From a virus (lineage: Duplodnaviria; Caudoviricetes): a stretch of 64,000 nt of DNA. The position numbers and the translations under genes were made by a program. Positions 229 through 61,602 of the stretch are shown piece by piece. Below the pieces are notes generated by a model. It did no database searches. It was not told where the DNA came from and saw nothing but the letters and a program-made list of their open reading frames with translations. Within the stretch, counting starts at the first letter, position 1, and each line of letters starts with the position of its first letter. The stretch covers positions 32,001 through 96,000 of the IMG/VR virus record IMGVR_UViG_3300032317_000216. One strand, 5' to 3'.

Positions 229-423
229 TTACTTGTTGTTCTGCTCTTTGCTTGGAATGTCTTTAACAGACACAAGCCCTTTGCGGATAAAAGTTCCACA
301 CGCAGGATCAATATAATGTGCTTCAACGATTTCTTTGTTGCCTCGAATAAAAGTCTTTAGCACAGGTTTAACAGGTTGACCGCTAATAGGAGAAGCAATG
401 ATTCTTGGTTCAATAAAATCCAT
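229..423 (-). CDS. hypothetical protein
   Basis: 64-aa ORF with a TAAATA late box 5 nt before the ATG. Confidence 0.6.
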   Translation of the reverse strand: MDFIEPRIIASPISGQPVKPVLKTFIRGNKEIVEAHYIDPACGTFIRKGLVSVKDIPSKEQNNK

Positions 424-427
424 ATAG

Positions 428-694
428 TTATTTATTCACAGTTGAGTTTTTTCTATACTGTTTAATGCATGTAGAGTAAACATTGCTCGGCAGTCTTTCT
501 ACGATATCAATAATTTTATTCTTCAACCCAAAACTAAACTTGTCTTCAGGTACATCTCTTATATTCATAGTGGGTAAAGAAAGGAACTTAAAATTATTTT
601 CTTTTTTTTCTATAAAGACAAATAATTCACCAAGGTACTTACCTGTTGTTATGGCATACACACAGCCTTTTTTAGGATGTTTATTGAATAGCAT
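428..694 (-). CDS. hypothetical protein
   Basis: 88-aa ORF packed against its neighbours on the same strand. Confidence 0.6.
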   Translation of the reverse strand: MLFNKHPKKGCVYAITTGKYLGELFVFIEKKENNFKFLSLPTMNIRDVPEDKFSFGLKNKIIDIVERLPSNVYSTCIKQYRKNSTVNK

Positions 695-1556
695 TTTTAT
701 AATTTTTTACAAATTTTGTCACTGCTTCTTTGAGGGATGCAGCCAAAGGAGGAAGCTGCAGTTTATACTTCTTGGCCTTTTTATCTGAAAGAACACAATT
801 GGATCGTTGTGCAACAATATCAAGTTCAGATATATCAACTATCTTCCAATTGTCATTAACAAGCCCACTGTATGCAAGATATTCAGATATTAACTTACCG
901 GTAATAACACCTGGGTTGATGACGTTAAATATGCCGGTAATGCTAGAAAGATCAGAACGAGATATGAGCTTCTCAATAAAAATATTCAAATCATCTGTAT
1001 TAGTACCACTATTCTTGAAATCTATAATGTTGTTGTACTTTAAAATTTTATAAATCAAATTCTTTGAAGTAACATCTGAATTGAATGGCATTCTTATTCT
1101 TAGAGTAATTGCGCTAGTGTTTCTTAACAGCACTTCACACATGTGTTTTGTAAAAGAATAATAACTGCTATTATTATCTGTTATTCCAAAATTTGGTTCA
1201 TCTTTTTCTGTATACTCTTTCTCATAGCCAGTGTATATACATCCAGATGATACGTTAATGAATTTTATATTTAATTGCTCACAGATATTGTTGATCTGTA
1301 CTGGGACAGAAACATTATAGAACAGACATTTCTCCTTTTCTTTTTCACATCCATCTACATTTGGTGACCCTGTATACCCTGAACAATTTATAATTATAGT
1401 AAAATCAGAACTTTTTAAATAATTAGAAAATACTTTACGGTCAGTATAATCTATACCAGTTCTTTTATCAATAAGAGTAGCATCGATTTTTTGACTTAAA
1501 AAATGAGCAAAAAGGCGAGTACCTATAAACCCTCTGCCTAAAATGAGAACTTTCAC
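681..1556 (-). CDS. NDP-4-keto-6-deoxyglucose 3,5-epimerase/4-reductase (RmlD/NRS-ER-like SDR, rhamnose synthesis)
   Basis: GxGxxG (LGRGFIG), TGSPNVDGCE, SSGCIY, YSFTK (YxxxK) and LRIRMP motifs as in NRS/ER-type enzymes. Confidence 0.8.
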   Translation of the reverse strand: MKVLILGRGFIGTRLFAHFLSQKIDATLIDKRTGIDYTDRKVFSNYLKSSDFTIIINCSGYTGSPNVDGCEKEKEKCLFYNVSVPVQINNICEQLNIKFINVSSGCIYTGYEKEYTEKDEPNFGITDNNSSYYSFTKHMCEVLLRNTSAITLRIRMPFNSDVTSKNLIYKILKYNNIIDFKNSGTNTDDLNIFIEKLISRSDLSSITGIFNVINPGVITGKLISEYLAYSGLVNDNWKIVDISELDIVAQRSNCVLSDKKAKKYKLQLPPLAASLKEAVTKFVKNYKNAIQ

Positions 1557-1589
1557 TATATTAAAATAATAAATTAATTGTAAAAAATA

Positions 1590-1925
1590 TCAACTATTAT
1601 CTCTGTCAGTATGCTGCTGATGTATGAATAGTTTGTTGACCAGAGTTGCAAGAGAATCGGCTTCCTGTTGATTGTGTGCAGAAATAAAATGAACCGGTTC
1701 ACCGTTAAAGTTATAACCAAGAACTATGAAGCTATTTAAAAACTCTTGAATGGTATTCACAAGTGCATCTACATCTCTCTTTTTATCAACTTTTTCATTG
1801 AGTTGTTTGTGGAGAAATGCTTCTATAGCTTTATTAGTGAGAGTGGTTTCAGTTTTAAATTTTGACGGATCAAAATTTTCTGATTTCTTATCACTGTTCT
1901 TGCGGTTGTTCGAGTCTTTTTTCAT
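1590..1925 (-). CDS. hypothetical protein
   Basis: 111-aa ORF in the minus-strand run. Confidence 0.6.
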   Translation of the reverse strand: MKKDSNNRKNSDKKSENFDPSKFKTETTLTNKAIEAFLHKQLNEKVDKKRDVDALVNTIQEFLNSFIVLGYNFNGEPVHFISAHNQQEADSLATLVNKLFIHQQHTDRDNS

Positions 1926-2298
1926 CTACAATATTATTTAGTCTATTCATCATATATCTCGACTTGCCTGGGTAATCACTATTGGTAATACCGTTTTTCT
2001 GTAGAAAATCTACAACAACTTCAATACTCTCTGTCTTTAAGAAGAAGTTTTTAGGTATTTTTACACCACCATCATCCAGTTCAAATAACATTTCACCAAC
2101 TTCATTCTTATTAATATAGCATGTACAAAGTACAGAGTTACCGGTTGGATTGATAATAACTGTCCAGCGTCTAGGATCATGCTTACCAAACACAGAAAAA
2201 AGACGAATAACAATATACCCATTATCTCTCAGTCTCTTAATAAAATAACCAGGTGTACGAAGTTTATTTTTAGAGGATTTATTCATATTTTTATTCAT
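1891..2298 (-). CDS. hypothetical protein
   Basis: 135-aa ORF directly after the sliding clamp gene. Confidence 0.6.
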   Translation of the reverse strand: MNKNMNKSSKNKLRTPGYFIKRLRDNGYIVIRLFSVFGKHDPRRWTVIINPTGNSVLCTCYINKNEVGEMLFELDDGGVKIPKNFFLKTESIEVVVDFLQKNGITNSDYPGKSRYMMNRLNNIVDEKRLEQPQEQ

Positions 2299-2299
2299 A

Positions 2300-3031
2300 T
2301 TAATTGGCTAAAGCAGACACAATAAATTTCATTGTTACATTACCTAAATTAGCATCAAATACATAAACACCAGTTTTACTTGAAAATGAACAGTTTAGCT
2401 CTTTGAACTTCATAGAAGAAATTATTCTAAATACTTCAAAATTCAAGGGTATAGATGAATTAAGTTGGATACCAGTATAATCTTCAGAAATAACTAACCC
2501 ATATGAATCAACGTTTGGCCTTGCTTTATCTGTTAATTCGCCTGTAACAACATTGTCTTTATACGAAAGATAGATTTTATTTGAGTCTGTTGCAATTGTG
2601 CTACCTTTAATCAGGTTTTGAAGATTATTATAAATCAGAGTGTACTTGCCATTGAATTCAAGTGAAAGCAATTTGTCAACATTGAGTCTTGGAGAGACAA
2701 TAATACCATCTTCAAAAAGATGATACTTAAATCTTATATTTTTTGAAGAATAAGAAATGTTATTCTTATCAAGATTTAGTTCAATGGCAGTTGCATCTAT
2801 AACTGAAAGAATGCGTATTAATTTGCTTATGTCAGGAATGTTAAGCAAAAATTCGTCGGTATTGTTTTGATTACTGTAAATAGCACTCAATATAATTGAG
2901 TTGTCATTTGTTGCTATCAGCGAACTAAAGGTGTCTTTTCCAACTTTAATTACTGCGCTATTAGTTACTTTACCTATGGGTGTTAAGAAGCTATTAACAA
3001 ATGCATTTTTATCATGAATAGAAATATTCAT
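2300..3031 (-). CDS. DNA polymerase sliding clamp (T4 gp45-like)
   Basis: 243 aa, beta-rich, IPDISKLIRILS and IRFKYHLFEDGII resemble gp45 segments; replication context. Confidence 0.65.
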   Translation of the reverse strand: MNISIHDKNAFVNSFLTPIGKVTNSAVIKVGKDTFSSLIATNDNSIILSAIYSNQNNTDEFLLNIPDISKLIRILSVIDATAIELNLDKNNISYSSKNIRFKYHLFEDGIIVSPRLNVDKLLSLEFNGKYTLIYNNLQNLIKGSTIATDSNKIYLSYKDNVVTGELTDKARPNVDSYGLVISEDYTGIQLNSSIPLNFEVFRIISSMKFKELNCSFSSKTGVYVFDANLGNVTMKFIVSALAN

Positions 3032-3039
3032 CTATCTCT

Positions 3040-3067
3040 ATTATATGTGATATGAATTATTTATCAA
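3040..3067 (-). promoter_or_regulatory. sigma70-like promoter TTGATA-N16-TATAAT, 8 nt before the clamp ATG
   Basis: Read directly from the sequence. Confidence 0.7.
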
Positions 3068-3404
3068 GCAACTTAACAATAACTTCTATATTAGAACTAA
3101 TCTTAGTTAAGATGTCAACCAGTTGATTAGGTTGCACACTTACCTGTGATTGAGAGGGAGCAGCATACTGCATGGGTGCTTGAGGTTGTGATGCTGTATG
3201 TTGTGGTTGTAGTACTGGTGGTTGTTGATTTTGACCAGGCAGTGACCCCACTATCTCTTTAATGTTGAGAGTATTGCCCCTTAGAGTATTTGTTTTACCA
3301 ATAATGTGGCTATCAAGCTCTTTAACAAACCCTTGAGTTTGTCCCAAGAACTGAAGAGCAATCATTTTTGCTTCTTCAGGAGTAGGTTCTCTAAAGGCAT
3401 CCAT
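3057..3404 (-). CDS. hypothetical protein, Gln/Pro-rich middle
   Basis: 115-aa ORF coupled to gp32 by a TAATG overlap. Confidence 0.6.
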   Translation of the reverse strand: MDAFREPTPEEAKMIALQFLGQTQGFVKELDSHIIGKTNTLRGNTLNIKEIVGSLPGQNQQPPVLQPQHTASQPQAPMQYAAPSQSQVSVQPNQLVDILTKISSNIEVIVKLLDK

Positions 3405-4264: not shown

Positions 4265-4272
4265 ATAGTCTT

Positions 4273-4300
4273 ATGATATATGAGTCTAGAGCATATTCAA
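4273..4300 (-). promoter_or_regulatory. promoter TTGAAT-N16-TATCAT, 8 nt before the gp32 ATG
   Basis: Read directly from the sequence. Confidence 0.65.
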
Positions 4301-4948
4301 CTCATTTTTTAATCTTTTTTTAAATCTGTCTAAACCTGTGACTACTAACACCTTACATTTTGAAGAGTTTAAGAATTTAATTTTCTTTGTATTTATTTTG
4401 TCGAGAAACTTGTCTTCAAACATGAATGACAGAATGTTAAGATCAGATTTAGTGAAGAAAGTATTTAAATCTTCAAAGCCTAAGAGTGAGTATATGTTGA
4501 TATCTCTGTTTTTTAAATGAAGTAAAAATGAATATATATCATTAGTTTTATGAGAGAGATACAATGACATGTCAATTTTATTGTCTTTGCAAAAGTTGTA
4601 GATAAACACAAGAGACTTCTTTGTAAAGGTTAGCTGATCATCTGAGTCAGGATCAAGATTATTAACATTATTACAAAAAACAGTATATGCTTTAATGGCT
4701 TTAAGACTAATAAAGTGGCTAAGCTCAAAAAATTTTTCATCTTTGTGTATACTGTAAGATGCTAAAAAGAAAGCTAATGGCTCTATCTCTTTGTGTTTGT
4801 TGAAAAAATTACTAAGTTTTTTAAGATGAGCTATACTCTTGTCATCCAAATCGTCAAAGTTTTTCCTCAAATTAAACGGTTTATTATTTTGCTGCCGGGA
4901 AGTTCTTAAATGCAGGTTGTAAATGTATTTCTCAAAATCAGATATCAT
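4286..4948 (-). CDS. hypothetical protein, possibly helicase loader (gp59-like)
   Basis: 220-aa basic helical protein immediately upstream of gp32, matching gp59 in size and position; sequence similarity is weak. Confidence 0.4.
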   Translation of the reverse strand: MISDFEKYIYNLHLRTSRQQNNKPFNLRKNFDDLDDKSIAHLKKLSNFFNKHKEIEPLAFFLASYSIHKDEKFFELSHFISLKAIKAYTVFCNNVNNLDPDSDDQLTFTKKSLVFIYNFCKDNKIDMSLYLSHKTNDIYSFLLHLKNRDINIYSLLGFEDLNTFFTKSDLNILSFMFEDKFLDKINTKKIKFLNSSKCKVLVVTGLDRFKKRLKNELNML

Positions 4949-5151
4949 TTATAGTTACGCCATTTTAACCTGTTAAAATCCTTTTTCAATCTTTTTAACC
5001 GGCTAGGCTTGTGATGATATCTTCTGAATCGTGATTCTTCAATAATAAGGGATTTCTGTACTTCTCTACTAAACTTAATATACATTTTATCAAAATACGG
5101 TTTTTCAATGCTCATATTTTTGTTGAGTTTGACTTCCGAATGTATAATCAT
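4945..5151 (-). CDS. rpsU: ribosomal protein bS21-like
   Basis: 68 aa, highly basic; FDKMYIKFSREVQKSLIIEESRFRRYHHKPSRLKRLKK fits the bS21 pattern (F/I)d.al.rFk+.v...gi..E.r.r..y.KPs..r+.k. Confidence 0.7.
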   Translation of the reverse strand: MIIHSEVKLNKNMSIEKPYFDKMYIKFSREVQKSLIIEESRFRRYHHKPSRLKRLKKDFNRLKWRNYK

Positions 5152-5429
5152 AGTTTATTAAAGTTCTTTGAGTTTAAAAATTTCATTATATATTTACTTT
5201 TATAGAGTGTAGAATCAAAGAATAAAAAATATTTTAATGCATCATACTTGTTTTTAAAGTCACAATAATCTACTAGAAGATCACGGAATCTTTGTTCCTT
5301 CAGTACCAAAAGAAATATATTGGCAAGATTTATCTTTTTGGGCTCAAGCAAGGCACAGAATGAGCAAAAAGAAAGAAATAAATGGTTTACTTCTATTTCT
5401 GATATTTTTTCTGTAGGTGTATAGCTCAT
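5148..5429 (-). CDS. hypothetical protein
   Basis: 93-aa ORF with ATGA overlaps on both sides. Confidence 0.6.
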   Translation of the reverse strand: MSYTPTEKISEIEVNHLFLSFCSFCALLEPKKINLANIFLLVLKEQRFRDLLVDYCDFKNKYDALKYFLFFDSTLYKSKYIMKFLNSKNFNKL

Positions 5430-6325: not shown

Positions 6326-6330
6326 TTACT

Positions 6331-7680: not shown

Positions 7681-7687
7681 ACCTCTA

Positions 7688-9055: not shown

Positions 9056-9084
9056 ATTATAGTATAGAATAATAAATAATTCAA
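9056..9084 (-). promoter_or_regulatory. promoter TTGAAT-N17-TATAAT, 7 nt before the amidotransferase ATG; overlaps a divergent late TAAATA box (9073-9078, +)
   Basis: Read directly from the sequence. Confidence 0.7.
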
Positions 9085-10080: not shown

Positions 10081-11067
10081 GTGAAAGTTAAAATTGTAGG
10101 CTGCGGGCTTTCAGGTGTAACGGCAGCAATCTTATTAAGCAAAAAAGGCCATTGTGTAGAAATATTTGAATCCAGAAACCACATTGGTGGTAACTGTTAC
10201 GATAGCAATGTTGCAGGGACTTTAGTTCATAATTATGGGCCACATTGTTTTCATACAAATGATGATGATGTTTATAACTTTTTATGTGACTACACTGATT
10301 GGCTAGATTTTGAATTAAGACCAAAAGGTAATACTGAGTTAGGGCTTATCTCATTACCTTACAGTAAGACAACAATACAAGAGCTGGGAAGAGAATTGTC
10401 ACAAGAAGAAATTACAGAGTATATTTTTAAGGGATATTCTGAAAAACAATGGGGAATCCCGTTTGATGAAATTCCTAAGAGTATAACTAATAGAATACCA
10501 AAAACAGCAGATAAAGTGAACCCTACTTGGGCAGAAGGTGAAAAATATCAATGCATACCTCTTAAAGGTTATACGGAAATGTTTAAGAATATGTTAGAAA
10601 ATATTACAGTTAATTTAAGTGTAAAGAATGAAGATTGGAGAAAGTATGAAGCAGACCTAACAATTTATACAGGTAAGATAGATGAGTATTTTAACTATTG
10701 TTATGGAAGATTGCCTTATAGGTCGCTAACTTTTGAGCACACTATGAGTTATAATAGAATGAAGACATTTATAATAAATCAAAATAAAAAAGATGTCCCT
10801 TATACAAGAATGTATGATCATAGCTATTTTACTTTTAACCATAAGGGCCCAACTATAATAACTAAAGAATATTCAATAAAACATACAGAAGATAATATAC
10901 CGTTTTATCCAATGCCATTTGGTGATGGTATTGAACTATATAACAAATATAACGAGCTTGCTAAGAAAGAGAAAAATGTTGTATTTGTTGGTCGACTAGC
11001 TACTTACAAATATCTTGATATGTGGATGGCCATAAAACAAGCAATGCAAAAAGTAGCGTTAATTTAA
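10081..11067 (+). CDS. glf: UDP-galactopyranose mutase
   Basis: VGCGLSG FAD motif, HIGGNCYD, HNYGPHCFHT, YSEKQWG, LPYRSL, PFYP, GRLATYKYLDM. Confidence 0.92.
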   Translation: MKVKIVGCGLSGVTAAILLSKKGHCVEIFESRNHIGGNCYDSNVAGTLVHNYGPHCFHTNDDDVYNFLCDYTDWLDFELRPKGNTELGLISLPYSKTTIQELGRELSQEEITEYIFKGYSEKQWGIPFDEIPKSITNRIPKTADKVNPTWAEGEKYQCIPLKGYTEMFKNMLENITVNLSVKNEDWRKYEADLTIYTGKIDEYFNYCYGRLPYRSLTFEHTMSYNRMKTFIINQNKKDVPYTRMYDHSYFTFNHKGPTIITKEYSIKHTEDNIPFYPMPFGDGIELYNKYNELAKKEKNVVFVGRLATYKYLDMWMAIKQAMQKVALI

Positions 11068-11799
11068 TTTTTTACAGTTATATTTCTTCCAGGGTATTGT
11101 AATTTTATAATTGACAGGGTCTATATAACCTGCATCGAGAAACCCTTTGATTCTGAGTGAACACGCTGTGCATTCACCACAAGCTTCTTCAGCGCCTTCA
11201 TAGCAAGTCCATGTGTTATTAAAATTTACTCCAAGCTTAACACCAAGCTTAATAATTTCTGCTTTTGATTTGTCAATTAATGGTGCTAATACTTTAATTC
11301 TATTTCTACGATTCAAGTCACTGACTTTGTTAATTTGATCTAAAAACTCAATACTACCATCCCAAAAGCCTGCAACACTATCAGCTTGAGCAGCTCCGTG
11401 AAAAACTACTGAAGCTCCAGTACTCTCTGCTATGCCTAAAGAAATGCTCAAAAGCATTAAATTCCTGAATGGTACATAATTAACTGTCTGTGGATCGCCC
11501 ATAACATCCTTGGCTTTTGCAACTGCAATATTATTGTTAGTTAACGCAGATGTTTGACAAATATCCTTAAAGAAAGGTATTTTTATGAATCTGTAATCAA
11601 CTTGTTGCTTGAGACTCTCAACTTGGAATGAAGCGCAATTTAGTTCTTTTTCACGGTGCTTTTGACCATAATCAAAGCTTACAGCCACAATATCATCATA
11701 CTTGTCAGCTGCATAATGTAGCAGGACAGTGCTGTCCATGCCACCTGAGATAGGAACGACTGCTTTACTCGACTGGTGTTTCTTCAGTTGGCGCTTCAT
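11059..11799 (-). CDS. queC: 7-cyano-7-deazaguanine (preQ0) synthase
   Basis: SGGMDST, FDYGQKH, YVPFRN, TWTCY..G...CGECTACSLR zinc site. Confidence 0.93.
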   Translation of the reverse strand: MKRQLKKHQSSKAVVPISGGMDSTVLLHYAADKYDDIVAVSFDYGQKHREKELNCASFQVESLKQQVDYRFIKIPFFKDICQTSALTNNNIAVAKAKDVMGDPQTVNYVPFRNLMLLSISLGIAESTGASVVFHGAAQADSVAGFWDGSIEFLDQINKVSDLNRRNRIKVLAPLIDKSKAEIIKLGVKLGVNFNNTWTCYEGAEEACGECTACSLRIKGFLDAGYIDPVNYKITIPWKKYNCKKLN

Positions 11800-12889: not shown

Positions 12890-12918
12890 AGTATATTAGA
12901 CACAATTGATAATATCAA
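12890..12918 (-). promoter_or_regulatory. promoter TTGATA-N17-TATACT, 6 nt before the uvsX ATG
   Basis: Read directly from the sequence. Confidence 0.7.
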
Positions 12919-15891: not shown

Positions 15892-15919
15892 ATTATATTA
15901 GGAAAAAAAATATTATCAA
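15892..15919 (-). promoter_or_regulatory. promoter TTGATA-N16-TATAAT, 6 nt before the gp43 GTG
   Basis: Read directly from the sequence. Confidence 0.7.
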
Positions 15920-18951: not shown

Positions 18952-20012
18952 TTACATTTCTTAAATAACTCTTGGCAATATTGAATTATATTTTCTTTGT
19001 CTTGAATATCTAGCATATTAACAAATTCCTCTATTGCTTTTTCAATATCTATACCTGACATGTCTACTTGAGCATCATCAGTTACTGTCAGATTATTGTT
19101 TACAGTATATTCAACAGATACAGAGAAAGGATTGAATGCAGCTATCTTTTTTAGTAGAGCATCAATATTATCAGATGCAACTTGCTTATCAATAATGAGC
19201 TTAATGATATTATTTTTAATTTCATCCTTGAGAGCAGCTTTGTCAGTTAAATTTAATATATCAGATAAGAGTATTTTCTTGTGCTTGGGTGATTTTTTAT
19301 TCTCAAAGAAATTAAGTTCAAGATTATTAAAGTCTAATATGTAATAGCCTTTTGTTGATCCTGTATCTCCAAAATCCATTTCAAAAGGATTACCAACATA
19401 AACAATTTTTTTTCCTTCATAGTTACGCTCATCTCTGAGATGAAAGTGCCCTGTGAGTACAAGATTGGCTTTATTGAGCAATTCTGATGTCTTGGTGCCT
19501 TTATCGCAGAGCTTGTAGCTATTCATCTTGAAGCTCTCTATTTCAAAGTGACCAAATATAATATCTTTTTGAGATACGTTCTGTATTGAATCACCCCAAG
19601 GTACAAACAGACATTCTTTACCAAATAAGGTAACACTAGAAAGAGAAGACACGACTGTTACATTCTTTCTCTCTTCAAATATGGCAATAGAATTAACATC
19701 AGGTCTGTCTTTATAATAAGCATCATGATTACCAACAAGGAGTATAATATTAAATTTTCTCCACAATTTAAAAATTTCATTAACTGTATGCAGAGTGTTA
19801 ACTGCAATTTCATCTCTGTAGTGGAAGATATCTCCTAGAATAAAGATGTCTTTAATCTTCTTCTCTGTTAACTCATGCGCCAGCCATTTAGCCCAAGACA
19901 GAGCTGTATCATGCCAGTATATACTATTCTGGTGTATACCAATATGTAAATCTGCAATACAACATACTTGGCTGTTATGTGTTGTTATTTCGTGCTTATG
20001 TTCCTGTAGCAT
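18948..20012 (-). CDS. Mre11/SbcD-like nuclease (T4 gp47)
   Basis: ADLHIG, LGDIF, GNHD, GHFE, GHFH, YVGNP. Start taken as ATG 20012. Confidence 0.92.
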   Translation of the reverse strand: MLQEHKHEITTHNSQVCCIADLHIGIHQNSIYWHDTALSWAKWLAHELTEKKIKDIFILGDIFHYRDEIAVNTLHTVNEIFKLWRKFNIILLVGNHDAYYKDRPDVNSIAIFEERKNVTVVSSLSSVTLFGKECLFVPWGDSIQNVSQKDIIFGHFEIESFKMNSYKLCDKGTKTSELLNKANLVLTGHFHLRDERNYEGKKIVYVGNPFEMDFGDTGSTKGYYILDFNNLELNFFENKKSPKHKKILLSDILNLTDKAALKDEIKNNIIKLIIDKQVASDNIDALLKKIAAFNPFSVSVEYTVNNNLTVTDDAQVDMSGIDIEKAIEEFVNMLDIQDKENIIQYCQELFKKCK

Positions 20013-20568
20013 TATAATTGTCGCTGTCATCATTACTTGAAGGGTCGACATAGATATTATAAGGATTATATCCAGTATCACCTTCATTAGATGTCATTAA
20101 ATCGGTATAAACTTTATCGCGATAGTTAGTCACGGTTTCATGGTGCTTTTTTTCTTTCTTAATACGGTTAATAAAAGCATGAAAAGCTATAGTTGTAAAA
20201 TAAGAAAAGGGACTGAATCCACTGTTTAGTCTAAATTTTTTATTCTTTAAGGCTGATACCATCTTAACAATGGCATCACCAATCATATCATCTTTGTACG
20301 AATAATTAATAAAGTTAGGGGCAAATGAAAGACCGTGAGCAATTTTATTTATAGAGTCACCAAGTTTAATAGAAATAAACTCAGTATTATAGAATTTCTG
20401 GATTTCTTCTTCAAACTCCTTACTATTAACATAATGTACCTTCTCTTTTCCTCTAGGTTTCTTAGGTTCAACTAAAGAGAGCGGAATAATACTATTAGCT
20501 TCTGCAGAAGTAAGCTGTTTCTTATTCTTGGATTTCTTTAATTTGGTAGGTGATGTTTTCTTTTTCAT
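19996..20568 (-). CDS. late transcription sigma factor (T4 gp55)
   Basis: HYVNSKEF, IAHGLS..PNFINYSYKDDMIGDA, PFSYFTTIAFHAFINRIKKEKK. Confidence 0.92.
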   Translation of the reverse strand: MKKKTSPTKLKKSKNKKQLTSAEANSIIPLSLVEPKKPRGKEKVHYVNSKEFEEEIQKFYNTEFISIKLGDSINKIAHGLSFAPNFINYSYKDDMIGDAIVKMVSALKNKKFRLNSGFSPFSYFTTIAFHAFINRIKKEKKHHETVTNYRDKVYTDLMTSNEGDTGYNPYNIYVDPSSNDDSDNYNATGT

Positions 20569-23079: not shown

Positions 23080-24564
23080 TTACGGTTTCTTGAGAATTTC
23101 ATTACCGATAACAAGATAATCTAGTGGCGTTGAATAAAGGAATTTTTTCGCATCATCTACTGTTCCTGTAAGAGGTTTGCCAGCAAGATTTAAGCTCGTA
23201 TTAAGCAAAACAGGGCATTTGGTTAGCTTATAAAATTCCTCGAGCAGCTGTCTGAAAATCTTGTTAGGGGTATTTGCATCTACTGTCTGCACTCTGCATG
23301 TACCGTCTACATGAGTTATTGACTGTAGCGTATCGGTTTTAACTTTTGCAACAAAAAGCATAAAATTGTCATCGTTAATATCGAAAAAACTATCTTTGTA
23401 TTCATATAAAACAGATGCACCAAAAGGTCGGTAGTTCTCTCGTTTCTTAATATTATTAATAAGCGTTCTTCCGTTGCTAATTCTTGGGTCAAGTAAAACA
23501 GAGCGGTTTCCTAAAGCTCGCGGACCTATTTCACCATGACCTTGATACCATCCAACTGAATGTCCTAGTGATAATAAATAAGCAGTGCGCTTAATTGTAT
23601 CTGGTGTAGGTTCTTCCAAAGGTGATTCATCATGTTGGATGAAAGGGAAGCTATTGAGCTCGAAGGGTGGTAGGTTGTTGTGTATTCTGAGCCATTCAAT
23701 AATACCTAGTGTAAGACCATCATCAGTTGAGTGGGGTGGTATAATGATATTTTTGAAATGTTTTCTTAGCTCTGTATTCCACAGTACATTTTGTGCAACA
23801 CCACCTGTAAAGGATATGCTTTGATCTGATGAAGCATACTGCTTAAAAAAGTCGACTAAAAGTTCTCCGGTTTTATGATGTAGAGATCTCATCCAATCTA
23901 ATGGTAGCAAACGCGCAACTGTTTCATCGCCTATATGTTGAACCCAATTTGAAAACGAAAACAATTTGCGAATATCGTGGATGCTGTGTTTATTGAGACT
24001 TTGCATGAAATCATTAGAAATTGTACCATATGACTGAAGACCCATGAGCTTGCCAGGAATATCTATATAGTGTTGTGCACCTATGCCAAGATATCTGCCT
24101 GCTTGCGCTGTCTCCATGCCAAGCGACCCATTTACTTCCACTGTGCCGCGATCTATAACTGTGTCTCCCTTAAACACTGTCCAACAGTGATCAAGGTCTC
24201 CAAATCCATCCATAACAATGCTTATATCAGGCTGCTTGTCCGCTAGCATCCAGACACTCAAAGCATGAGCATAATGATGATTAATTCTCCATGTTTGACA
24301 AGGCAATTCAAGCTCATTATATGGTACTGCATTGGAAGATACTATAGATGTACAGGGTGAATCAACAACTATGCCGATTTGATCTATTTTGTTTATATCT
24401 TCGTTAAACAGTTTTGTAAAATCGTGTCTCCAATCTATAAGATTGTTGTAAGCATGGTGCTTTATTCCTTTTGTTCTTTCAGTTTTGAGATATTTTAATT
24501 TATGTCCATCAAAATAACAGAAACTACTATCATGTGCACATAGGCGAAGAGCGAGAAGCTTCAT
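23080..24564 (-). CDS. NodU/CmcH-family carbamoyltransferase
   Basis: HDSS, HHYAHA, DGFGD, GKLMGL, GGVAQN, EIGPRALGNRS, KKRENYRPFG, HVDGTCRVQT, LLNTSLN. Confidence 0.92.
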   Translation of the reverse strand: MKLLALRLCAHDSSFCYFDGHKLKYLKTERTKGIKHHAYNNLIDWRHDFTKLFNEDINKIDQIGIVVDSPCTSIVSSNAVPYNELELPCQTWRINHHYAHALSVWMLADKQPDISIVMDGFGDLDHCWTVFKGDTVIDRGTVEVNGSLGMETAQAGRYLGIGAQHYIDIPGKLMGLQSYGTISNDFMQSLNKHSIHDIRKLFSFSNWVQHIGDETVARLLPLDWMRSLHHKTGELLVDFFKQYASSDQSISFTGGVAQNVLWNTELRKHFKNIIIPPHSTDDGLTLGIIEWLRIHNNLPPFELNSFPFIQHDESPLEEPTPDTIKRTAYLLSLGHSVGWYQGHGEIGPRALGNRSVLLDPRISNGRTLINNIKKRENYRPFGASVLYEYKDSFFDINDDNFMLFVAKVKTDTLQSITHVDGTCRVQTVDANTPNKIFRQLLEEFYKLTKCPVLLNTSLNLAGKPLTGTVDDAKKFLYSTPLDYLVIGNEILKKP

Positions 24565-25857: not shown

Positions 25858-25869
25858 TAAATATTAATA

Positions 25870-29805: not shown

Positions 29806-29810
29806 ATAAA

Positions 29811-29833
29811 TATTTATTAATTCTTACTAAATA
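29811..29833. promoter_or_regulatory. back-to-back late promoters (TAAATA on both strands), each 5 nt from its start codon
   Basis: TATTTA at 29811-29816 (minus) and TAAATA at 29828-29833 (plus). Confidence 0.7.
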
Positions 29834-29838
29834 ATATT

Positions 29839-30554: not shown

Positions 30555-31205
30555 TTATCTCTTCATGTTAGCAATAAAGTTATAAAATTCTGCTCTTACA
30601 GCAGCATCATCCATAAAATCACCGCCAAGCTTACTGGTCTTCATTTCACAACCATCATGCTTCACACCACGATGGCAAGCACATGTATGTGTTGCACTCA
30701 CAACAACAGCAACACCTCTATTCTTCTCACACACATCATTAATTGCACCATGAATCTGCATTGTGAGACCTTCTTGTATTTGTGGTCTGCGAGCATAAAA
30801 CTCAACAATCCTGTTGAGCTTGCTCAAGCCTATAACACGACCTTCAAGAGAAGGTATATAGGCAACATGCGCTACACCAGTGAAAGCAAGATGATGATGA
30901 CTGCACATGCTCTTGACAGGTATACCGCCCTGAAACACCATGCCATCATAACCGTTGCTAGGGAATGATGTAATCTTGGGTGGTTCTGTGTAACAACCAG
31001 CAGCTAGATCATTCACAAAAGCTTTTGCAACACGTCTAGGTGTGTTGGTACTGTTCGGATCATTGCGCCAATCAAAGCCAAGAGCATCCAGATACGCTTC
31101 ATAGGCTTTAGCAGCCTTTTCAATAATATCTTGTTTCTCCTCCTCTGTGTGTGGGTGGTTTCCGTTAGCAAATCTTAGTTTATATTCTTTGGAGTACTCT
31201 GACAT
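30555..31205 (-). CDS. folE: GTP cyclohydrolase I
   Basis: TPRRVAK, SMCSHHH, IGLSKLNR, RRPQIQE, HTCACHRG. Confidence 0.95.
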   Translation of the reverse strand: MSEYSKEYKLRFANGNHPHTEEEKQDIIEKAAKAYEAYLDALGFDWRNDPNSTNTPRRVAKAFVNDLAAGCYTEPPKITSFPSNGYDGMVFQGGIPVKSMCSHHHLAFTGVAHVAYIPSLEGRVIGLSKLNRIVEFYARRPQIQEGLTMQIHGAINDVCEKNRGVAVVVSATHTCACHRGVKHDGCEMKTSKLGGDFMDDAAVRAEFYNFIANMKR

Positions 31206-31212: not shown

Positions 31213-31248
31213 ATTATATGTTAAGTATTACAGCGTTCAACATAAATA
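31213..31248. promoter_or_regulatory. folE promoter TTGAAC-N16-TATAAT (minus, 7 nt before ATG) and a divergent late TAAATA (31243-31248, plus, 5 nt before ATG 31254)
   Basis: Read directly from the sequence. Confidence 0.7.
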
Positions 31249-34233: not shown

Positions 34234-34246
34234 CTAATAATATTTA

Positions 34247-34274
34247 TTGATTTTTGCTATCTTTATAGCATAAT
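34247..34274 (+). promoter_or_regulatory. promoter TTGATT-N16-CATAAT, 6 nt before the queE ATG
   Basis: Read directly; abuts the divergent phoH late box (34241-34246). Confidence 0.65.
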
Positions 34275-34280: not shown

Positions 34281-35018
34281 ATGGAAAAGAGTATATTTCT
34301 ATCAGACGACAAGGTTTTTCACACTATTGAAGGTGAAGGAGAACACATTGGTAAGCCTTCACTGTTTATGCGTGTTGCAATGTGTAATCTCACATGCAAG
34401 GGGTTTGCTAGCAAAGATTCTCCACATGGGTGTGATAGTTTTGTCAGCTGGTCAGTGAAAAACAGGTTTACCTTTGACCAGTTATTTCAATACCTAGAAG
34501 ATCATAATTATATTACTCTGCTGCGCAGAGGTGATATATTTAAGATCACCGGCGGTGAGCCGCTCATACAGCAAAAAAATCTTCTGGAATTTATTGCAGC
34601 TTTTGCACTCAAGTACCGCTTCATACCAAGAATAGACTTTGAGACTAATGCAACCATTATACCCGACCCATCTTGGCAGCTTGACTACTTAGCTACATTC
34701 ACAACATCACCCAAGCTTGCAAGTAATGGTGACCCTGAGAACAAGCGATACATACCTGATGCATTAATGTGGCATGCACGCAATGGCTCAGGGTTTAAGT
34801 TCGTCATTACAAAAGAAGAAGACCTTAAGGAGATTGAAGAGCGTTACAGAGAGAAGTTTGATTTCAGGAGAAATAAAGTGTGGTTAATGCCTTGTTGTGG
34901 AAGCAGAGAGGAACATATTGTTATTGCTCCTCTTGTGGCTGAATTATGCAAGAAACATGGCTTTAACTTCAGTCCAAGATTGCAGCTTGTTATCTGGGAT
35001 AAAGCCTTGAAGGTTTAG
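34281..35018 (+). CDS. queE: 7-carboxy-7-deazaguanine synthase (radical SAM)
   Basis: TIEGEG..IG.PS.F.R, CNLTC-x11-CD, ITGGEPL, ETN, SPKL, KFV, PRLQ..IW. Confidence 0.92.
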   Translation: MEKSIFLSDDKVFHTIEGEGEHIGKPSLFMRVAMCNLTCKGFASKDSPHGCDSFVSWSVKNRFTFDQLFQYLEDHNYITLLRRGDIFKITGGEPLIQQKNLLEFIAAFALKYRFIPRIDFETNATIIPDPSWQLDYLATFTTSPKLASNGDPENKRYIPDALMWHARNGSGFKFVITKEEDLKEIEERYREKFDFRRNKVWLMPCCGSREEHIVIAPLVAELCKKHGFNFSPRLQLVIWDKALKV

Positions 35019-35039: not shown

Positions 35040-35774
35040 ATGAGAATTGCCATAGTAGGATCTGCTTGTCAGGGTAAGACAACTCTTGCAAATGATTTTA
35101 TCAAAAACTGGCCTGCTTACAAACGGTCCAAAGAAAGCTATAGACAATTAATTAAAAAAGACAAAATTAAGATTAACAAAAATGTAGATAGTGATGGTCA
35201 GTGGAAAATTCTTAATAGCTTGATTGATGATCTTCAGAACACAGAAAAAACTGATAAGCTTATTTTCGATAGATGCCCACTTGACAATTTAATATACTCC
35301 ATGTGGAGTTTTGATAAACAGAAATCTGATATAGATAAGGAATTCATCGACAAATGCATACCTCTTGTGTGTGAGAGTATGCGTCATTTGGATATTATAT
35401 TTTTTATTCCTATTACTAAGGTGGCTACCGTAAAGATAGAAGAAAGAGAATTAAGAGAAGTGGACAAATCATTCATTGAGGAGATTGATAACATATTCAA
35501 AGCAGTGCAGCGTTCCTATTATACAGGAAAATCACCCTTCTTTCCCAAGGATGATTCTCCTGCAATAATTGAAGTGTTTGGTTCACCAGAAGAGAGAATT
35601 AAAATGATAGAGCTGTATCTTAATAAAGATGGAGAACTACATGGCGAAGAAGAGAGTGTATTAAATCCTGAGAATCTGGATTACATGGAAACATTGCTTA
35701 AAGCACAGAAGCAAGCAAAAGAACAAGAAGAAGAAGAAGTAAGATTGAGAAAAAAATACCTTTTTAATAAATAA
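35040..35774 (+). CDS. P-loop nucleotide kinase-like protein (AAA_28/NadR-type)
   Basis: GSACQGKTT, FDRCPLD, then the IFFIP...R lid region. Confidence 0.7.
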   Translation: MRIAIVGSACQGKTTLANDFIKNWPAYKRSKESYRQLIKKDKIKINKNVDSDGQWKILNSLIDDLQNTEKTDKLIFDRCPLDNLIYSMWSFDKQKSDIDKEFIDKCIPLVCESMRHLDIIFFIPITKVATVKIEERELREVDKSFIEEIDNIFKAVQRSYYTGKSPFFPKDDSPAIIEVFGSPEERIKMIELYLNKDGELHGEEESVLNPENLDYMETLLKAQKQAKEQEEEEVRLRKKYLFNK

Positions 35775-36734: not shown

Positions 36735-36740
36735 CGATAT

Positions 36741-36778
36741 TATTTATACTTGAATATTGGAAATAATATGTATAAATA
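36741..36778. promoter_or_regulatory. divergent perfect TATAAATA late promoters driving the fibre-like gene (-) and the first gene of the glycosylation island (+)
   Basis: TATTTATA at 36741-36748 and TATAAATA at 36771-36778. Confidence 0.75.
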
Positions 36779-36783
36779 AAAAC

Positions 36784-37315: not shown

Positions 37316-37343
37316 TTGCTATTAATATTTCATATGCTATAAT
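37316..37343 (+). promoter_or_regulatory. promoter TTGCTA-N16-TATAAT, 8 nt before the first glycosyltransferase
   Basis: Read directly from the sequence. Confidence 0.6.
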
Positions 37344-48629: not shown

Positions 48630-49406
48630 ATGAAAAAGGGGCTTGTAGGTTTTACTAACGAGAAATATATTGCGTTAACAGAAGTTTTTGTTGATTCTGT
48701 TTTAAAATTTTCTTCCTTGCCTGTAACTATAATTACTATGGGATTTGATCACGACTTTAAAAATAGTCGCGTAAATAACAAGCGGGTAGATCTTGAATTA
48801 AATCAAAATTCGTGGGTAGAATCAACCCTCAGTAAGTATATAGCTTGCGCTCAAACACCATATGATGTTACTTTTTATGCAGATATCGACATGGTTATAA
48901 CAAAAAAATTTGACCCATGGTTCAATAGTATTGAGCCCACTGTTGCTTCTCTTGAAAAAATATTTAGCTGCAAACACCCTCATTTTCCTTGCAATGAAAC
49001 TAATCATTCTTTATTACAATTTTTTAAAAAATTTGGTCTCGGTATAACTCCAGATTATATTTTAACTGCAGGGTTTGCTTATAACCACAAATTCATACCT
49101 CGCTTTTTAGACGCTCATAAGAGAGCAATTAGTCTCCTTAAAGACGGTGTTGAATTTCCAACAGGTGAGGAATGCTTTTTGAACGCATTTCTAATGCAAA
49201 ACAACCTCATACAAGACAGCGGGTATGATTATCTGCCAAACGCTGAGCTTTTTGAGTCATACATCAACAAATCCTTAGATGCTAAAAAGTACATACACCC
49301 TATATACCTGGAACAAGGCAGATACATAAATCCCGTTCTTTTTCATGGAAATAAAGATATTAACCGAGCTCGGTATATGATAGAAGAAATTGAAAAACAC
49401 ACTTGA
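48630..49406 (+). CDS. putative GT-A (GT8-like) glycosyltransferase
   Basis: YADIDM (DxD), GEE..LN, LFHGNK. Start ATG 48630. Confidence 0.6.
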   Translation: MKKGLVGFTNEKYIALTEVFVDSVLKFSSLPVTIITMGFDHDFKNSRVNNKRVDLELNQNSWVESTLSKYIACAQTPYDVTFYADIDMVITKKFDPWFNSIEPTVASLEKIFSCKHPHFPCNETNHSLLQFFKKFGLGITPDYILTAGFAYNHKFIPRFLDAHKRAISLLKDGVEFPTGEECFLNAFLMQNNLIQDSGYDYLPNAELFESYINKSLDAKKYIHPIYLEQGRYINPVLFHGNKDINRARYMIEEIEKHT

Positions 49407-49430
49407 ATATTATTTTTTATACACTATCAT
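49403..49430 (+). promoter_or_regulatory. promoter TTGAAT-N16-TATCAT, 8 nt before the DUF366 ATG
   Basis: Same -35/-10 pair and spacing as the gp32 promoter. Confidence 0.65.
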
Positions 49431-51568: not shown

Positions 51569-51599
51569 CTTCATAAAAAGTATACTATAATATAGTACT

Positions 51600-53231: not shown

Positions 53232-53242
53232 TAAATAATATA

Positions 53243-54393: not shown

Positions 54394-54434
54394 ATAGATA
54401 TTTAAAAGATTTAGTATATCATAAATAATACTAT

Positions 54435-56213: not shown

Positions 56214-56224
56214 TAAATAATTAA

Positions 56225-57313: not shown

Positions 57314-57315
57314 TT

Positions 57316-57774: not shown

Positions 57775-57798
57775 TGCATTCTTTTAATAAATAATCAT

Positions 57799-58458: not shown

Positions 58459-58461
58459 TAT

Positions 58462-58638
58462 ATGAATCAAGAAGACAATAGCATTCAACCATCATCTCAA
58501 GAAAAGGCTTCCCTTTCTAACTTTATTAGCAATATTTCTCAAGAAAAGTATGCTGCAGCTAATAAATATTTACAGGAACTACTTGATGCCAAGCTAAAAG
58601 CTAGAATTCAAGCAGCTTCTAAAAAAGAAATTTTTTAA
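58462..58638 (+). CDS. small prohead core protein (gp67-like), missing from the ORF track
   Basis: 58-aa ORF MNQEDNSIQPSSQEKASLSNFISNISQEKYAAANKYLQELLDAKLKARIQAASKKEIF filling the gp21-gp22 gap. Confidence 0.55.
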   Translation: MNQEDNSIQPSSQEKASLSNFISNISQEKYAAANKYLQELLDAKLKARIQAASKKEIF

Positions 58639-58639
58639 T

Positions 58640-59515
58640 ATGGAAAAAACAGTAACAGATACTCTTAAAGAAGCAACAAAAGATATCCTAACAGAGGATG
58701 TTCTAAAAGAAATCGAAACAGCTTTTAATGCTTCAGTAGATCAAAAAGTTAAAATTCACGTAGAAAAAGCTCTTATGGAGCAAGATGAAGATTATAGCAA
58801 GAAGCTCGAAAAACTTGTTGAAGCTATTGACACTGATCATACAGCTAAGCTCGACAAAGTTGTAGAAGCTCTTGATGCTGATAGAGCTGAAAAATTAAAA
58901 CAGGTTGTTAAGAAATACGAAACAGCTCTTCATACTGAAGCTACTTCTTTTAAGGAAACACTTGTTAATACAATTTCTAGATATCTTGAAAAGTATTTAG
59001 ATGAAAAACTTCCTCTTGCTGATATTGAGCAAGCTGTTAAGAACAAAAAAGCTCTTAATATGCTCACTAACTTGAGAGAAGCTCTTGCCGTAGATATGGC
59101 TCTCTCTAATGATAGCATTAAAGAAGCTGTAGTGGATGGTAAGAATAAAATCGATGAAGCTGTACAACAGCTTGAAGCCTCAAATAAGAAGGTAAATGAG
59201 CTAACAAATGAGCTCAATAAAATGAGAGCAGATCTCGCTCTGGAGAAGGTCGTTCAAGATCTTGATTCAGACAAGAAAGTATACATGAAAAAAATGCTTA
59301 AAGGTAAATCTGCTGATTTTATTACAGAAAACTTCAAATATACATTGGGGCTTTACGAGAAAACCGAAGAAGAGAGACTAACAGGTCTTAAAGAAGAAGC
59401 AGTTAAACAAACTGTTTCTGAAAAAGTAGACAGACCTGTTATCGCCGAGTCAGTAGAAGAGAATACAGATGAACCTGGATTTAAGAACTACATGACAGAG
59501 CTTAGCAAGTACTAA
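58640..59515 (+). CDS. prohead scaffold (T4 gp22-like)
   Basis: Acidic coiled-coil protein between the protease and capsid genes. Confidence 0.85.
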   Translation: MEKTVTDTLKEATKDILTEDVLKEIETAFNASVDQKVKIHVEKALMEQDEDYSKKLEKLVEAIDTDHTAKLDKVVEALDADRAEKLKQVVKKYETALHTEATSFKETLVNTISRYLEKYLDEKLPLADIEQAVKNKKALNMLTNLREALAVDMALSNDSIKEAVVDGKNKIDEAVQQLEASNKKVNELTNELNKMRADLALEKVVQDLDSDKKVYMKKMLKGKSADFITENFKYTLGLYEKTEEERLTGLKEEAVKQTVSEKVDRPVIAESVEENTDEPGFKNYMTELSKY

Positions 59516-59591
59516 TTTCCTTTTCTTGAGGGTAATCCTGAACAGAAAAAAATAAAGGTCGACATTATCTCTTTGGAGATTTATAATAATT

Positions 59592-61082
59592 ATGGCAAAC
59601 ATACGTCCTTCACAGTCTTACATCAGTGAAGATCGCGCCAAACTATTGATTGAGAAGTGGGGTCCAGTATTGGATTACACCTCAAACAATGTTAGAGCGA
59701 TTGAAGATGATCACACTCGTTTGAACACCGCCATCCTCTTGGAAAACCAAGAGAAGTGGTGTTTCGAAGCTAGCAACGTCGCTGGTGGAACCCCCGGAGT
59801 ATTCAGCAACAACACAATTGATGCTGGTGGCCGCGGTAATCAGTTCCCTTCCCAGAATGACAGCGCTTATGCTCCTAACGATTCGCGTCTTCCTAAGATC
59901 CTCATTCCGATGATTAGACGTACCTTCCCTGAGTTGATTACTAACGAAATCGTTGGTGTACAGCCCATGAGTGGCCCAGTTGGTCTAGCCTTCGCCCTCC
60001 GCTACAAGTATGAGAGCGATGCACTAGGTTTCAACACAACAGGCAACCTCGACGGCTCAGCAACAACAAATCTTAATAATCCTCAGCTACAGTCAGACAG
60101 TGACGAGTTGGGATATCAGTATCTAGATACTAGATTCACTGGTACCTCTTCTGGTTCGCTCTCTGGTAATGCTACTTACTTCCCAATGGTTGATCAGGAT
60201 CAGGGTGTTGCTCAGTTGCTCGCTAACTTCGAGCTAACAAGCAAGATTCCTCAGATCGTTGTCAGCTTTGAGAAGACAGCAGTAGAAGCCGGTACACGTA
60301 GATTAGCTGCTCGTTGGTCTGTTGAACTCGAGCAGGACTTGAAGAACATGAACGGTATTGATATCGACACTGAGCTCACAAACGCAATGTCTTATGAGCT
60401 ACAGGCCGAAATCGATCGTGAAATGATCATCAGAATGATCCAGACAGCTCTAAACGGTGGCTTCGGCCGCGGTTTCTCTGTTTGGTCTCCTGCTTCCGCA
60501 GACGGCCGCTGGCTAGTTGAACGTAACCGTGACTTCTATCAGAGACTCATCGTTGAGGCTAATCGTATTGCAGTACGCAATCGCCGTGGTTCCGCTAACT
60601 TTATCGTTGCGACACCTCGCGTTTGCGCTATCTTGGAAATGCTCCCTGAATTTCAGTGGGTACCAGTCCAGGGTAACGTCAATACACAGCCCGTCGGTGT
60701 AGCAAAGGTTGGTTCACTTGGTGGTAGGTTCAATGTTTATCGTGACACACGTACAGAAGCTCAGTTTGAGCTTGGACAAGGTGGCAATTACAGTGGATCC
60801 GGCACATACGGATCCTCTCAGTATCGCACACAGCGTCTAGAATACGCTCTCTTGGGTTACAAGGGACCAGAGTTCTACGACACTGGTATCATCTACTGTC
60901 CGTACATTCCCGTCATGGTACAGAGAACAATTGGACCCAATGATTTCGCTCCCCGTGTTGGTCTATTGACCCGCTACGGAGTAGTCGATAACATCTTTGG
61001 TGCTAACCTCTACTATCACGTCATCATCCTACAGGGTCTTGGTGTTGCGTTCCAGCCTGGAACACAATCAGTCTACTTCTAA
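59592..61082 (+). CDS. major capsid protein (T4 gp23)
   Basis: KW..VL, AILLENQ, LIPMIRR..P.LI...IVGVQPMSGP.GL.FALR, R.L.ARWS.EL.QDL, EIDRE, YCPYIP, TRYG. Confidence 0.97.
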   Translation: MANIRPSQSYISEDRAKLLIEKWGPVLDYTSNNVRAIEDDHTRLNTAILLENQEKWCFEASNVAGGTPGVFSNNTIDAGGRGNQFPSQNDSAYAPNDSRLPKILIPMIRRTFPELITNEIVGVQPMSGPVGLAFALRYKYESDALGFNTTGNLDGSATTNLNNPQLQSDSDELGYQYLDTRFTGTSSGSLSGNATYFPMVDQDQGVAQLLANFELTSKIPQIVVSFEKTAVEAGTRRLAARWSVELEQDLKNMNGIDIDTELTNAMSYELQAEIDREMIIRMIQTALNGGFGRGFSVWSPASADGRWLVERNRDFYQRLIVEANRIAVRNRRGSANFIVATPRVCAILEMLPEFQWVPVQGNVNTQPVGVAKVGSLGGRFNVYRDTRTEAQFELGQGGNYSGSGTYGSSQYRTQRLEYALLGYKGPEFYDTGIIYCPYIPVMVQRTIGPNDFAPRVGLLTRYGVVDNIFGANLYYHVIILQGLGVAFQPGTQSVYF

Positions 61083-61141
61083 AAAAAGTAGTCGGGATTC
61101 AACAAAGAAAACACTTTCACCTGGTAAGTCCCAGGAAATTT

Positions 61142-61175
61142 AAAAAAGGGCCTCTTGCGGGGCCCTTTTTTTTTT
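61142..61175 (+). terminator. rho-independent terminator after gp23 (potentially bidirectional)
   Basis: A6-GGGCCTC-TTGC-GGGGCCC-T10. Confidence 0.9.
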
Positions 61176-61209
61176 GCAAAAAAACCTCATGTATTGAATA
61201 AATATTTGT

Positions 61210-61602
61210 ATGCCTCAAATACGTTTTACTAATACTCTAGCAAATCCAGCTTCAACAACACCTGAAACATTGAATGTTTCTCTCACTTCAAAAGGTGTAG
61301 TTCTTGAAGAACTTGGTGCCAATGTGAAGTTTCTCGTTTTTCAAGACACCCCTCTTGCATTAACTACAAATTTTCAAACACTTTCAACACCTGAAGGTAC
61401 AAAGTTTAGAGCTGATACAGCGTACAGTGGTGCTCAGTTTGGTGTTATATTTAAAGACAATTCTTCCACAATCTTCACATTACTGACAGGTGGAACAAAT
61501 GGAGCCAACAGAGTTACATATATACTACAGACTGTTGCTTCTAATGGATATAATTCACAGAGTCTTGCTGATTTCCAGAGACTCTGGAACCTTAACGGTT
61601 AA
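61210..61602 (+). CDS. late hypothetical protein, possibly a capsid decoration protein
   Basis: TAAATA 5 nt before the ATG; T/S/N-rich; follows gp23. Confidence 0.55.
   Translation: MPQIRFTNTLANPASTTPETLNVSLTSKGVVLEELGANVKFLVFQDTPLALTTNFQTLSTPEGTKFRADTAYSGAQFGVIFKDNSSTIFTLLTGGTNGANRVTYILQTVASNGYNSQSLADFQRLWNLNG

Follow-up and report, generated by a model that had tools for sequence, protein, structure and literature searches.

The DNA analysed here is a window of 64,000 nucleotides (nt), bases 32001-96000 of a 128,640-bp IMG/VR virus contig (34% GC, estimated to be 61% complete), whose sequence marks its source as a deeply branching, uncultured, freshwater T4-like phage. Two promoter classes were recognized, a late class with the T4-type box TAAATA and an early class of the sigma70 type, and in both the promoter is set directly against the start codon of a gene. 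This layout makes it very likely that the messages of both classes begin on the AUG or GUG itself, without a leader. Coordinates below are those of the window, with the strand in brackets, and positions on the whole contig are marked "genome".

The spacing of the late box is sharply defined. Over both strands of the contig, N5-ATG follows 24 of the 215 TAAATA sites, compared with about three at each other gap from 0 to 30 nt, and no spacing other than 5 nt is enriched. The reversed pattern matched once in place of 24 times, and other AT hexamers gave no peak in the same scan. When GTG was counted alongside ATG, 30 occurrences were observed against 7.2±2.7 (maximum 17) in 200 dinucleotide-preserving shuffles (z ~8.6). 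The original prediction, read from the letters of the window, had placed late TAAATA boxes 5 nt before start codons; a histogram of these distances, run contig-wide, peaks at that gap far above the shuffles. The same spacing is seen at gene starts. With the 161 open reading frames (ORFs) analysed on the contig given their default start, that of the longest ORF, chosen blind to the motif, the box lies at gap 5 in 18 genes, gap 6 in 6 and gap 7 in 4; it also stands 9-11 nt before about eight genes, where it would mean a leader of 4-6 nt. No combination of hexamer and position upstream of starts is more enriched than TAAATA at gap 5 (27 vs 0.13 expected, an upper bound, since the starts had been refined using the motif), and 5 nt is the modal gap of the late class (27 of 39 genes).

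The late box of T4 is the 8-bp sequence TATAAATA at -13 to -6, and its late transcription employs a gp55 sigma factor, a gp33 co-activator and a gp45 clamp (PMC2988020). In the logo of the 27 gap-5 sites found here, numbered on the assumption that the A of ATG is +1, T-11 A A A T A-6 is invariant, -13 and -12 are mostly A, and nothing is conserved farther upstream; the extended consensus before late starts is (a/t)aTAAATAATnnn-ATG, with the box (a/t)aTAAATAAT. The core at -11 to -6 thus has the T4 coordinates, and a 5-nt gap does make the start codon's first base +1, as had been proposed. A gene for a gp55-type late sigma factor is encoded at 19996-20568 (-) (phrog_234 'late sigma transcription factor', E 2e-25; weak Sigma70_r2), and its product is presumed to read the TAAATA box. 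With matching coordinates and a gp55 homologue, the assignment of TAAATA as a T4-type late promoter core holds.

Within the window, the predicted sites are exact. Among virion genes, the box lies at 53232-53237 (+), gap 5 to GTG 53243 of the tail sheath stabilizer gp3; at 54422-54427 (+), gap 7 to ATG 54435 of the gp20 portal; at 56214-56219 (+), directly 3' of the portal stop codon and gap 5 to ATG 56225 of the neck/head-tail adaptor; and at 57788-57793 (+), gap 5 to ATG 57799 of the gp21 prohead protease. Further boxes with a 5-nt gap stand at 429-434 (-) before ATG 423 of a 64-amino-acid ORF, at 31243-31248 (+) before ATG 31254, at 35768-35773 (+) before GTG 35779 and at 61199-61204 (+) before ATG 61210. 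Two divergent spacers each hold two opposed boxes: the 33-bp spacer 29806-29838 has boxes at 29811-29816 (-) and 29828-29833 (+), gap 5 each to ATG 29805 (-) and ATG 29839 (+), and the 49-bp spacer 36735-36783 has boxes at 36741-36746 (-), gap 6 to 36734 (-), and 36773-36778 (+), gap 5 to 36784. The remaining longer gaps are found at 9073-9078 (+), gap 8 to ATG 9087 (315 amino acids, without a family match), at 25858-25863 (+), gap 6 to ATG 25870, and at 34241-34246 (-), gap 7 to ATG 34233 of a PhoH-like gene. The variants TAAGTA, before 10081 and 22660, and TAATTA, before 35040, are equally as predicted. Starts 31254, 36784 and 53243 differ from the longest-ORF starts; GTG 53243 is backed by a profile alignment from residue 1 and by relatives, and 31254 and 36784 are placed by the motif alone.

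The early class, which has the same layout, is the stronger argument compared with the late class, to which the original prediction was confined. Because a -35 box has no role in translation, the early elements are promoters. Using two-box scoring (-35 with at least 4/6 matches, -10 with at least 5/6, spacer 16-18), promoters were found 5-8 nt before 27 of the 161 starts, vs ~0.8 expected from all other genomic ATG/GTG, and at only ~0.5 per gap for gaps of 9-30. The simple patterns TATAAT-N5-8-RTG and TTGA-N19-TANNNT are weak genome-wide; the signal is decisive only at gene starts with two-box scoring. The early logo, TTGAat ... TATAAT, places the -10 hexamer at -12 to -7 and the -35 box near -34 when +1 is the A or G that opens the start codon, and the modal gap is 6 nt (14 of 34 genes). 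The class-specific modal gaps, 5 nt for late and 6 nt for early genes, are what the two promoter types require. Since both classes sit on canonical coordinates with the start codon at +1, the polymerase should start on the AUG or GUG.

Early promoters on the minus strand are TTGATA-N16-TATAAT at 3040-3067 (gap 8 to ATG 3031), TTGAAT-N16-TATCAT at 4273-4300 (gap 8 to ATG 4264 of the single-stranded DNA-binding protein gp32), TTGATA-N17-TATACT at 12890-12918 (gap 6 to ATG 12883 of UvsX), TTGATA-N16-TATAAT at 15892-15919 (gap 6 to GTG 15885 of the gp43 DNA polymerase) and TTGAAC-N16-TATAAT at 31213-31240 (gap 7 to ATG 31205 of a GTP cyclohydrolase). Those on the plus strand are TTGATT-N16-CATAAT at 34247-34274 (gap 6 to ATG 34281 of a QueE-like gene), TTGCTA-N16-TATAAT at 37316-37343 (gap 8 to ATG 37352 of the first glycosyltransferase of a long coupled operon) and TTGAAT-N16-TATCAT at 49403-49430 (gap 8 to ATG 49439); a -10 hexamer TATAAT at 51586-51591 (+) lies 8 nt before GTG 51600 of the UvsW helicase.

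The two classes divide the genes by function. Annotated late-box genes encode gp3, the portal, the neck protein, gp21, two baseplate wedge proteins, the hub, two tube-like proteins, the sheath and PhoH, while annotated early-promoter genes encode gp32, UvsX, gp43, GTP cyclohydrolase (FolE), QueE, a glycosyltransferase, a DHH phosphoesterase, an epimerase-like protein and UvsW. Virion genes make up 10 of 11 annotated late-box genes vs 2 of 12 early-promoter genes (Fisher p = 6e-4). The description of the layout as near genome-wide was overstated, with an abutting promoter in roughly 35-45% of genes and the rest internal, mostly stop/start-coupled. With motif-blind starts, a late box lies at 5-8 nt in 29 genes and an early promoter in 27, or 35% of the 161 ORFs; with motif-refined starts, some of which are doubtful internal ones, the figures are 39 late and 34 early (45%). 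Where the neighbour is divergent or the upstream spacer is at least 20 nt, 53 of 86 genes have an abutting promoter. The promoter-abutted classes start with ATG 58 times, GTG 12 times and TTG 3 times. Among the same-strand junctions of the remaining, mostly coupled genes, 45 of 75 are 3 nt or shorter, and 19 ATGA overlaps occur.

Sequences upstream of the starts show no sign of Shine-Dalgarno (SD) pairing. Over the 20 nt upstream, the mean anti-SD duplex energy is -0.08 kcal/mol for late and -0.75 kcal/mol for early genes, vs -1.85 kcal/mol at random positions, and promoter-less genes have the energy of random genome positions. GGAG, GAGG and AGGA are nearly absent, the 73 promoter-abutted genes having one GGAG, at the capsid gene. 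The proposal that no SD is used is thereby sustained, there being no signal upstream of either promoter class or of the remaining genes. The surroundings of several starts also restrict where a message could begin. Three late-box starts, genome 27921, genome 7859 (-) and window 61210, follow the end of a strong intrinsic terminator by 17, 21 and 38 nt, which leaves no space for a leader; nor is there space for leaders in the 33-49-bp divergent spacers with their two opposed boxes. The terminators at window 61150-61195 and genome 27880-27905 are bidirectional (A-run, GC hairpin, T-run), with the T-run leading directly into the late box, such that terminator, promoter and ATG are compressed into a unit of ~40 nt.

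The claim that late messages are leaderless was supported by geometry and by the lack of SD sequences, and the part of it naming portal, neck and protease stood for the layout on all three; the portal, with a gap of 7, could have a leader of up to 2 nt. Where it did not stand is the major capsid gene, gp23, which is a conserved, leadered exception. Its ATG at 59592 is preceded by a leader region (59527-59591, +) with no TAAATA. This leader contains a small 4-5-bp hairpin with compensatory changes, then CTGAAYAG, an invariant GGTCGACA that precedes the ATG by 23-27 nt and, ~13 nt before the ATG, a purine tract with the sequence GGAG, AAGG or GAAAGAAA (GGAG in this phage). The elements are present in 31 of 31 distinct relatives (for example L010:15101-15179 and L018:15301-15377) and were found only at the capsid gene. 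Rfam gave no family over threshold in the window, the capsid leader included. The leader could serve to process or stabilise the message, or it could provide the most abundant protein with a special translation signal.

To compare relatives, IMG/VR was searched with the portal, which returned 365 related stretches, of which 80 loci (886 kb) were taken; the conservation set comprised 38-55 distinct relative contexts at 58-99% amino acid identity. In the 886 kb, N5-ATG follows 147 of 1510 TAAATA sites vs ~20 per other gap, counts that are non-independent as the loci are related. At gp3, the box, the 5-nt gap and the GTG are kept in most of ~50 distinct relatives, a few having a leader instead. 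At the neck gene, box and gap 5 are kept in most distinct relatives, with a few lacking the box, and at gp21 all 38 distinct contexts have the box, most of them at gap 5 and a few at 7-8; the layout of neck and protease is thus conserved clade-wide. For gp3, neck and gp21, box and gap persist as ATAAATA-N5-start, while there is free variation in the flanks and in the five bases between box and start. In the early class, TATAAT-N5-7-GTG is kept before UvsW in ~45 relatives. At the portal the box is kept, at 5-7 nt in near relatives and at 10-24 nt in others, a drift that fits a promoter and not a ribosome site at a fixed distance. In the subclade L018, L026, L034 and L023, gp3 has TAAATA followed by a leader with AGGAGG and not the fused layout, so SD-led and leaderless versions of one gene would coexist in the clade. 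A metagenome scan with a degenerate 27-mer from +7 of gp21 found 8 long DNA contigs, none starting at ATG.

We propose a model in which a transcription unit consists of a promoter and then a start codon, without a 5' untranslated region (UTR). Early units would have a host sigma70-type promoter with its -10 hexamer at -12 to -7 of the start codon, late units a gp55-type box with its core at -11 to -6, and in both classes RNA polymerase would start on the first base of AUG or GUG. The 5'-terminal start codon would then be bound directly by ribosomes (70S, or 30S-IF2-fMet-tRNA) without SD pairing. Downstream cistrons, which have no SD and mostly overlap (ATGA, TAATG), would probably be translated by termination-reinitiation coupling. 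Transcription start, mode of ribosome loading and coupling are all proposed here from sequence. An ORF of 68 amino acids at 4945-5151 (-), in an ATGA-coupled early operon, resembles bS21 (Pfam Ribosomal_S21, 25.5 bits, cut-off 27), and one may speculate that it is relevant to SD-independent or leaderless initiation; no phage-encoded initiation factor IF1 or IF3 is found in the contig. The lack of SD sequences and the bS21-like gene had raised the idea of a Bacteroidota host. This is unlikely, as the early promoters are TTGAnn/TATAAT and not TTTG/TAnnTTTG, the promoter type of Bacteroidota.

Several observations weigh against the leaderless model. We infer leaderlessness from promoter geometry only. 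Motif-guided choice of starts lies behind some class assignments, the unbiased counts being 29 late and 27 early of 161. Among the 80 related viral contigs, no accumulation of contig ends at start codons is seen. Judged by folding energy over the first 40 nt, promoter-abutted genes are not less structured than internal segments, a comparison that favours neither side. Of the T4 late factors, gp45 gave no match with a P-HM1 query or Pfam PF02916 in the contig and 2-4 relatives, the Pfam control being matchless as well, and gp33 did not turn up in the 61%-complete contig or in three relatives, no search having been aimed at it. SD-like tracts are present at the capsid gene, at a few right-end genes and at gp3 of some relatives. 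Given these tracts, an anti-SD is probably retained on the host ribosome, which would make the leaderless layout a preference rather than a necessity.

Four other explanations were weighed. In the first, TAAATA at -11 to -6 would be an AU-rich, SD-independent ribosome-loading or enhancer element, such as an S1-binding site, within leadered polycistronic messages. Where SD sequences are absent some other initiation signal is needed, and 13 late boxes do stand where genes are tightly joined, the upstream gene being less than 20 nt away. However, the motif is the core of T4 and cyanophage late promoters in a phage that encodes gp55, and it occurs in the 33-49-bp divergent spacers and directly after terminators. 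It also drifts to 10-24 nt before the portal in relatives, is missing from promoter-less internal genes, and has a parallel in an early class with a -35 box at 16-17 bp. We regard a ribosome-loading role as improbable.

A second explanation, to which we give still less credence, accepts the boxes as promoters and moves the true translation starts farther downstream, the ATG or GTG at +1 being simply an initiating purine context ahead of ordinary leaders. The three starts that are not those of the longest ORF (31254, 36784 and 53243) would suit it, as would small ORFs without homologue support, e.g. that at 423 (-). The annotated proteins do not: their profile alignments begin at residues 1-13 (protein to profile: gp3 1->2, UvsX 1->16, sheath 2->20, gp21 4->14, gp43 12->19). 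Relatives keep the start codon at the exact spacing with conserved N-terminal codons after it, and no SD precedes any downstream ATG.

Less probable again is that the motif marks an endoribonuclease processing site, with transcripts trimmed to the start codon and leaderless only post-transcriptionally, as with MazF in E. coli. Trimming would likewise fix the start-codon distance, and the capsid leader shows that conserved RNA elements exist in the clade. However, processing is unneeded given canonical promoter geometry in two independent classes, and next to a terminator, or between divergent genes, no transcript arrives from upstream that could be processed. Finally, in a 34% GC genome with 215 TAAATA sites, the pattern might be put down to chance, or might simply follow from AT-rich sequence and gene junctions rich in stop codons, but this is already refuted by the shuffles, the reversed control, the lack of a peak for other AT hexamers and clade-wide conservation, and keeps a negligible probability.

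A broader form of the leaderless model is that a whole branch of T4-like phages, which includes the large freshwater clade and the SAR11 myophages, runs its complete T4-type temporal programme on leaderless first cistrons and coupled downstream cistrons with no SD. We consider this doubtful. If it held, abundant, uncultured, streamlined hosts would initiate efficiently on a 5'-terminal AUG or GUG, and the divergent bS21-like protein and the special leadered capsid message would be adaptations to such a ribosome.

The leaderless model that we favour has consequences of its own. It would predict that the hosts translate leaderless messages well. T4 late transcription is a classic model with SD-led messages, and if a large environmental branch of T4-like phages has both host-type and gp55-type promoters fused to start codons, the T4 programme would be shown to need no 5' UTRs. 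Gene-start calling in such phages would improve, several correct starts here not being those of the longest ORF. As the cultured pair of HTVC008M and Pelagibacter HTCC1062 shares the late layout, it offers a testable, cultivable system.

The phage branches deeply among T4-like phages. Compared with cultured phages, T4, cyanophages and HTVC008M included, its gp20 and gp23 reach an identity of only 30-34%, and the best identity of gp23 to any record is 34% at most; megablast of the 9.5-kb head module against phage records found no match, and the phage has no close cultured relative. PHROG matches in the window include gp32, UvsX, gp43, a gp41-like helicase, gp46/47, UvsW and gp55, and on the virion side gp3, the gp20 portal, the neck protein, the gp21 protease and the gp23 capsid protein. 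Matches to gp44, primase, terminase, sheath, tube, hub and wedge proteins lie on the contig outside the window, the clamp loader gp44 at genome 8983-9939 (-).

A variant box, TAAGTA(AT), stands 5-9 nt before starts at window 10081 and 22660 and at genome 16548 (-), 115728, 120528 and 124399, and some of these genes begin with a common N-terminus. In some relatives, the TAAGTA-type variant TAAGTAAT also lies within the portal leader where this is longer. This variant may be a second late or a middle box. Genes for a QueC-like protein (11059-11799, -), GTP cyclohydrolase (30555-31205, -), a QueE-like protein (34281-35018, +) and a carbamoyltransferase (23080-24564, -) form a 7-deazaguanine DNA-modification set, all with early-type or coupled expression. 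To the right of the window, genes of genome 125.4-128.6 kb, among them those at 126885 (-) and 127081 (-), are preceded by SD sequences of the GGAG type, and a tRNA-like sequence lies at genome ~125.6 kb; unlike the rest of the contig, this stretch may be a module of different origin.

Comparison with known systems places the late box within the T4 family and its position outside it. The late box of T4-like cyanophages is NATAAATA (PMC2984593). T4 and the cyanophages share with this phage the TAAATA core, the absence of a -35 element, an AT-rich stretch downstream, a gp55 homologue and a box before virion genes, and the first two positions (-13/-12 TA) are relaxed here as in the cyanophage box. 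The distance to the start codon is different. In the T4 late region, TATAAATA lies ~24-28 nt before ATGs with GGAG or AGGA in between and no gap-5 peak, and in cyanophage P-HM1 late leaders are 25-50 nt; the box of both is thus 20-50 nt before the ATG, with a leader that mostly carries an SD, whereas here the distance is 5 (to 8) nt, with no SD and presumably no leader. The proposed contrast with T4 is borne out, its late genes carrying SD-bearing leaders of 20-30 nt. Counts of TAAATA-N5-ATG against the reversed control, 24 vs 1 in this contig, are 10 vs 5 in T4 and 3 vs 2 in P-HM1.

HTVC008M, a cultured myophage of Pelagibacter (SAR11), was compared for the late box only and shares the late layout, with 14 matches vs 4 for the reversed control. 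In the 15 kb inspected, 7 of 7 matches are annotated coding sequence starts, including gp2, gp4, gp48 and the tape measure. It differs in a portal that is ~33% identical and in an extended box, TAAATAGT...

Leaderless messages are established elsewhere. In mycobacteria, only a 5' AUG or GUG works in leaderless translation (PMC4633059), and lambda cI is expressed from PRM as a leaderless message (PMC10491246). Common to these and to the present phage is that a 5'-terminal AUG or GUG suffices, or here would suffice, and that TTG is avoided; those cases involve individual genes or a minor part of a host's genes, while here a T4-type phage programme would be organised around the layout. Among published systems, the Thermus phages phiYS40 and Lalka27a come closest, most of their transcripts being leaderless by mapping (bioRxiv 10.64898/2026.04.20.719267); a '-10 adjacent to ORF' pattern is described in Deinococcus-Thermus (PMC12340547). 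The two phages share with this one a phage-wide layout, an initiator A or G as the 5' end (here a predicted one) and several temporal promoter classes. They differ in being unrelated, in a host phylum known for leaderless genes, in a late -10 such as TAGGGT and in 5' ends that were mapped experimentally. A literature search found no report of T4-like phages, nor of HTVC008M, with promoters fused to start codons. Neither leaderless messages nor the T4 late system is new in itself; it is their apparent combination in T4-like phages that would be the new part.

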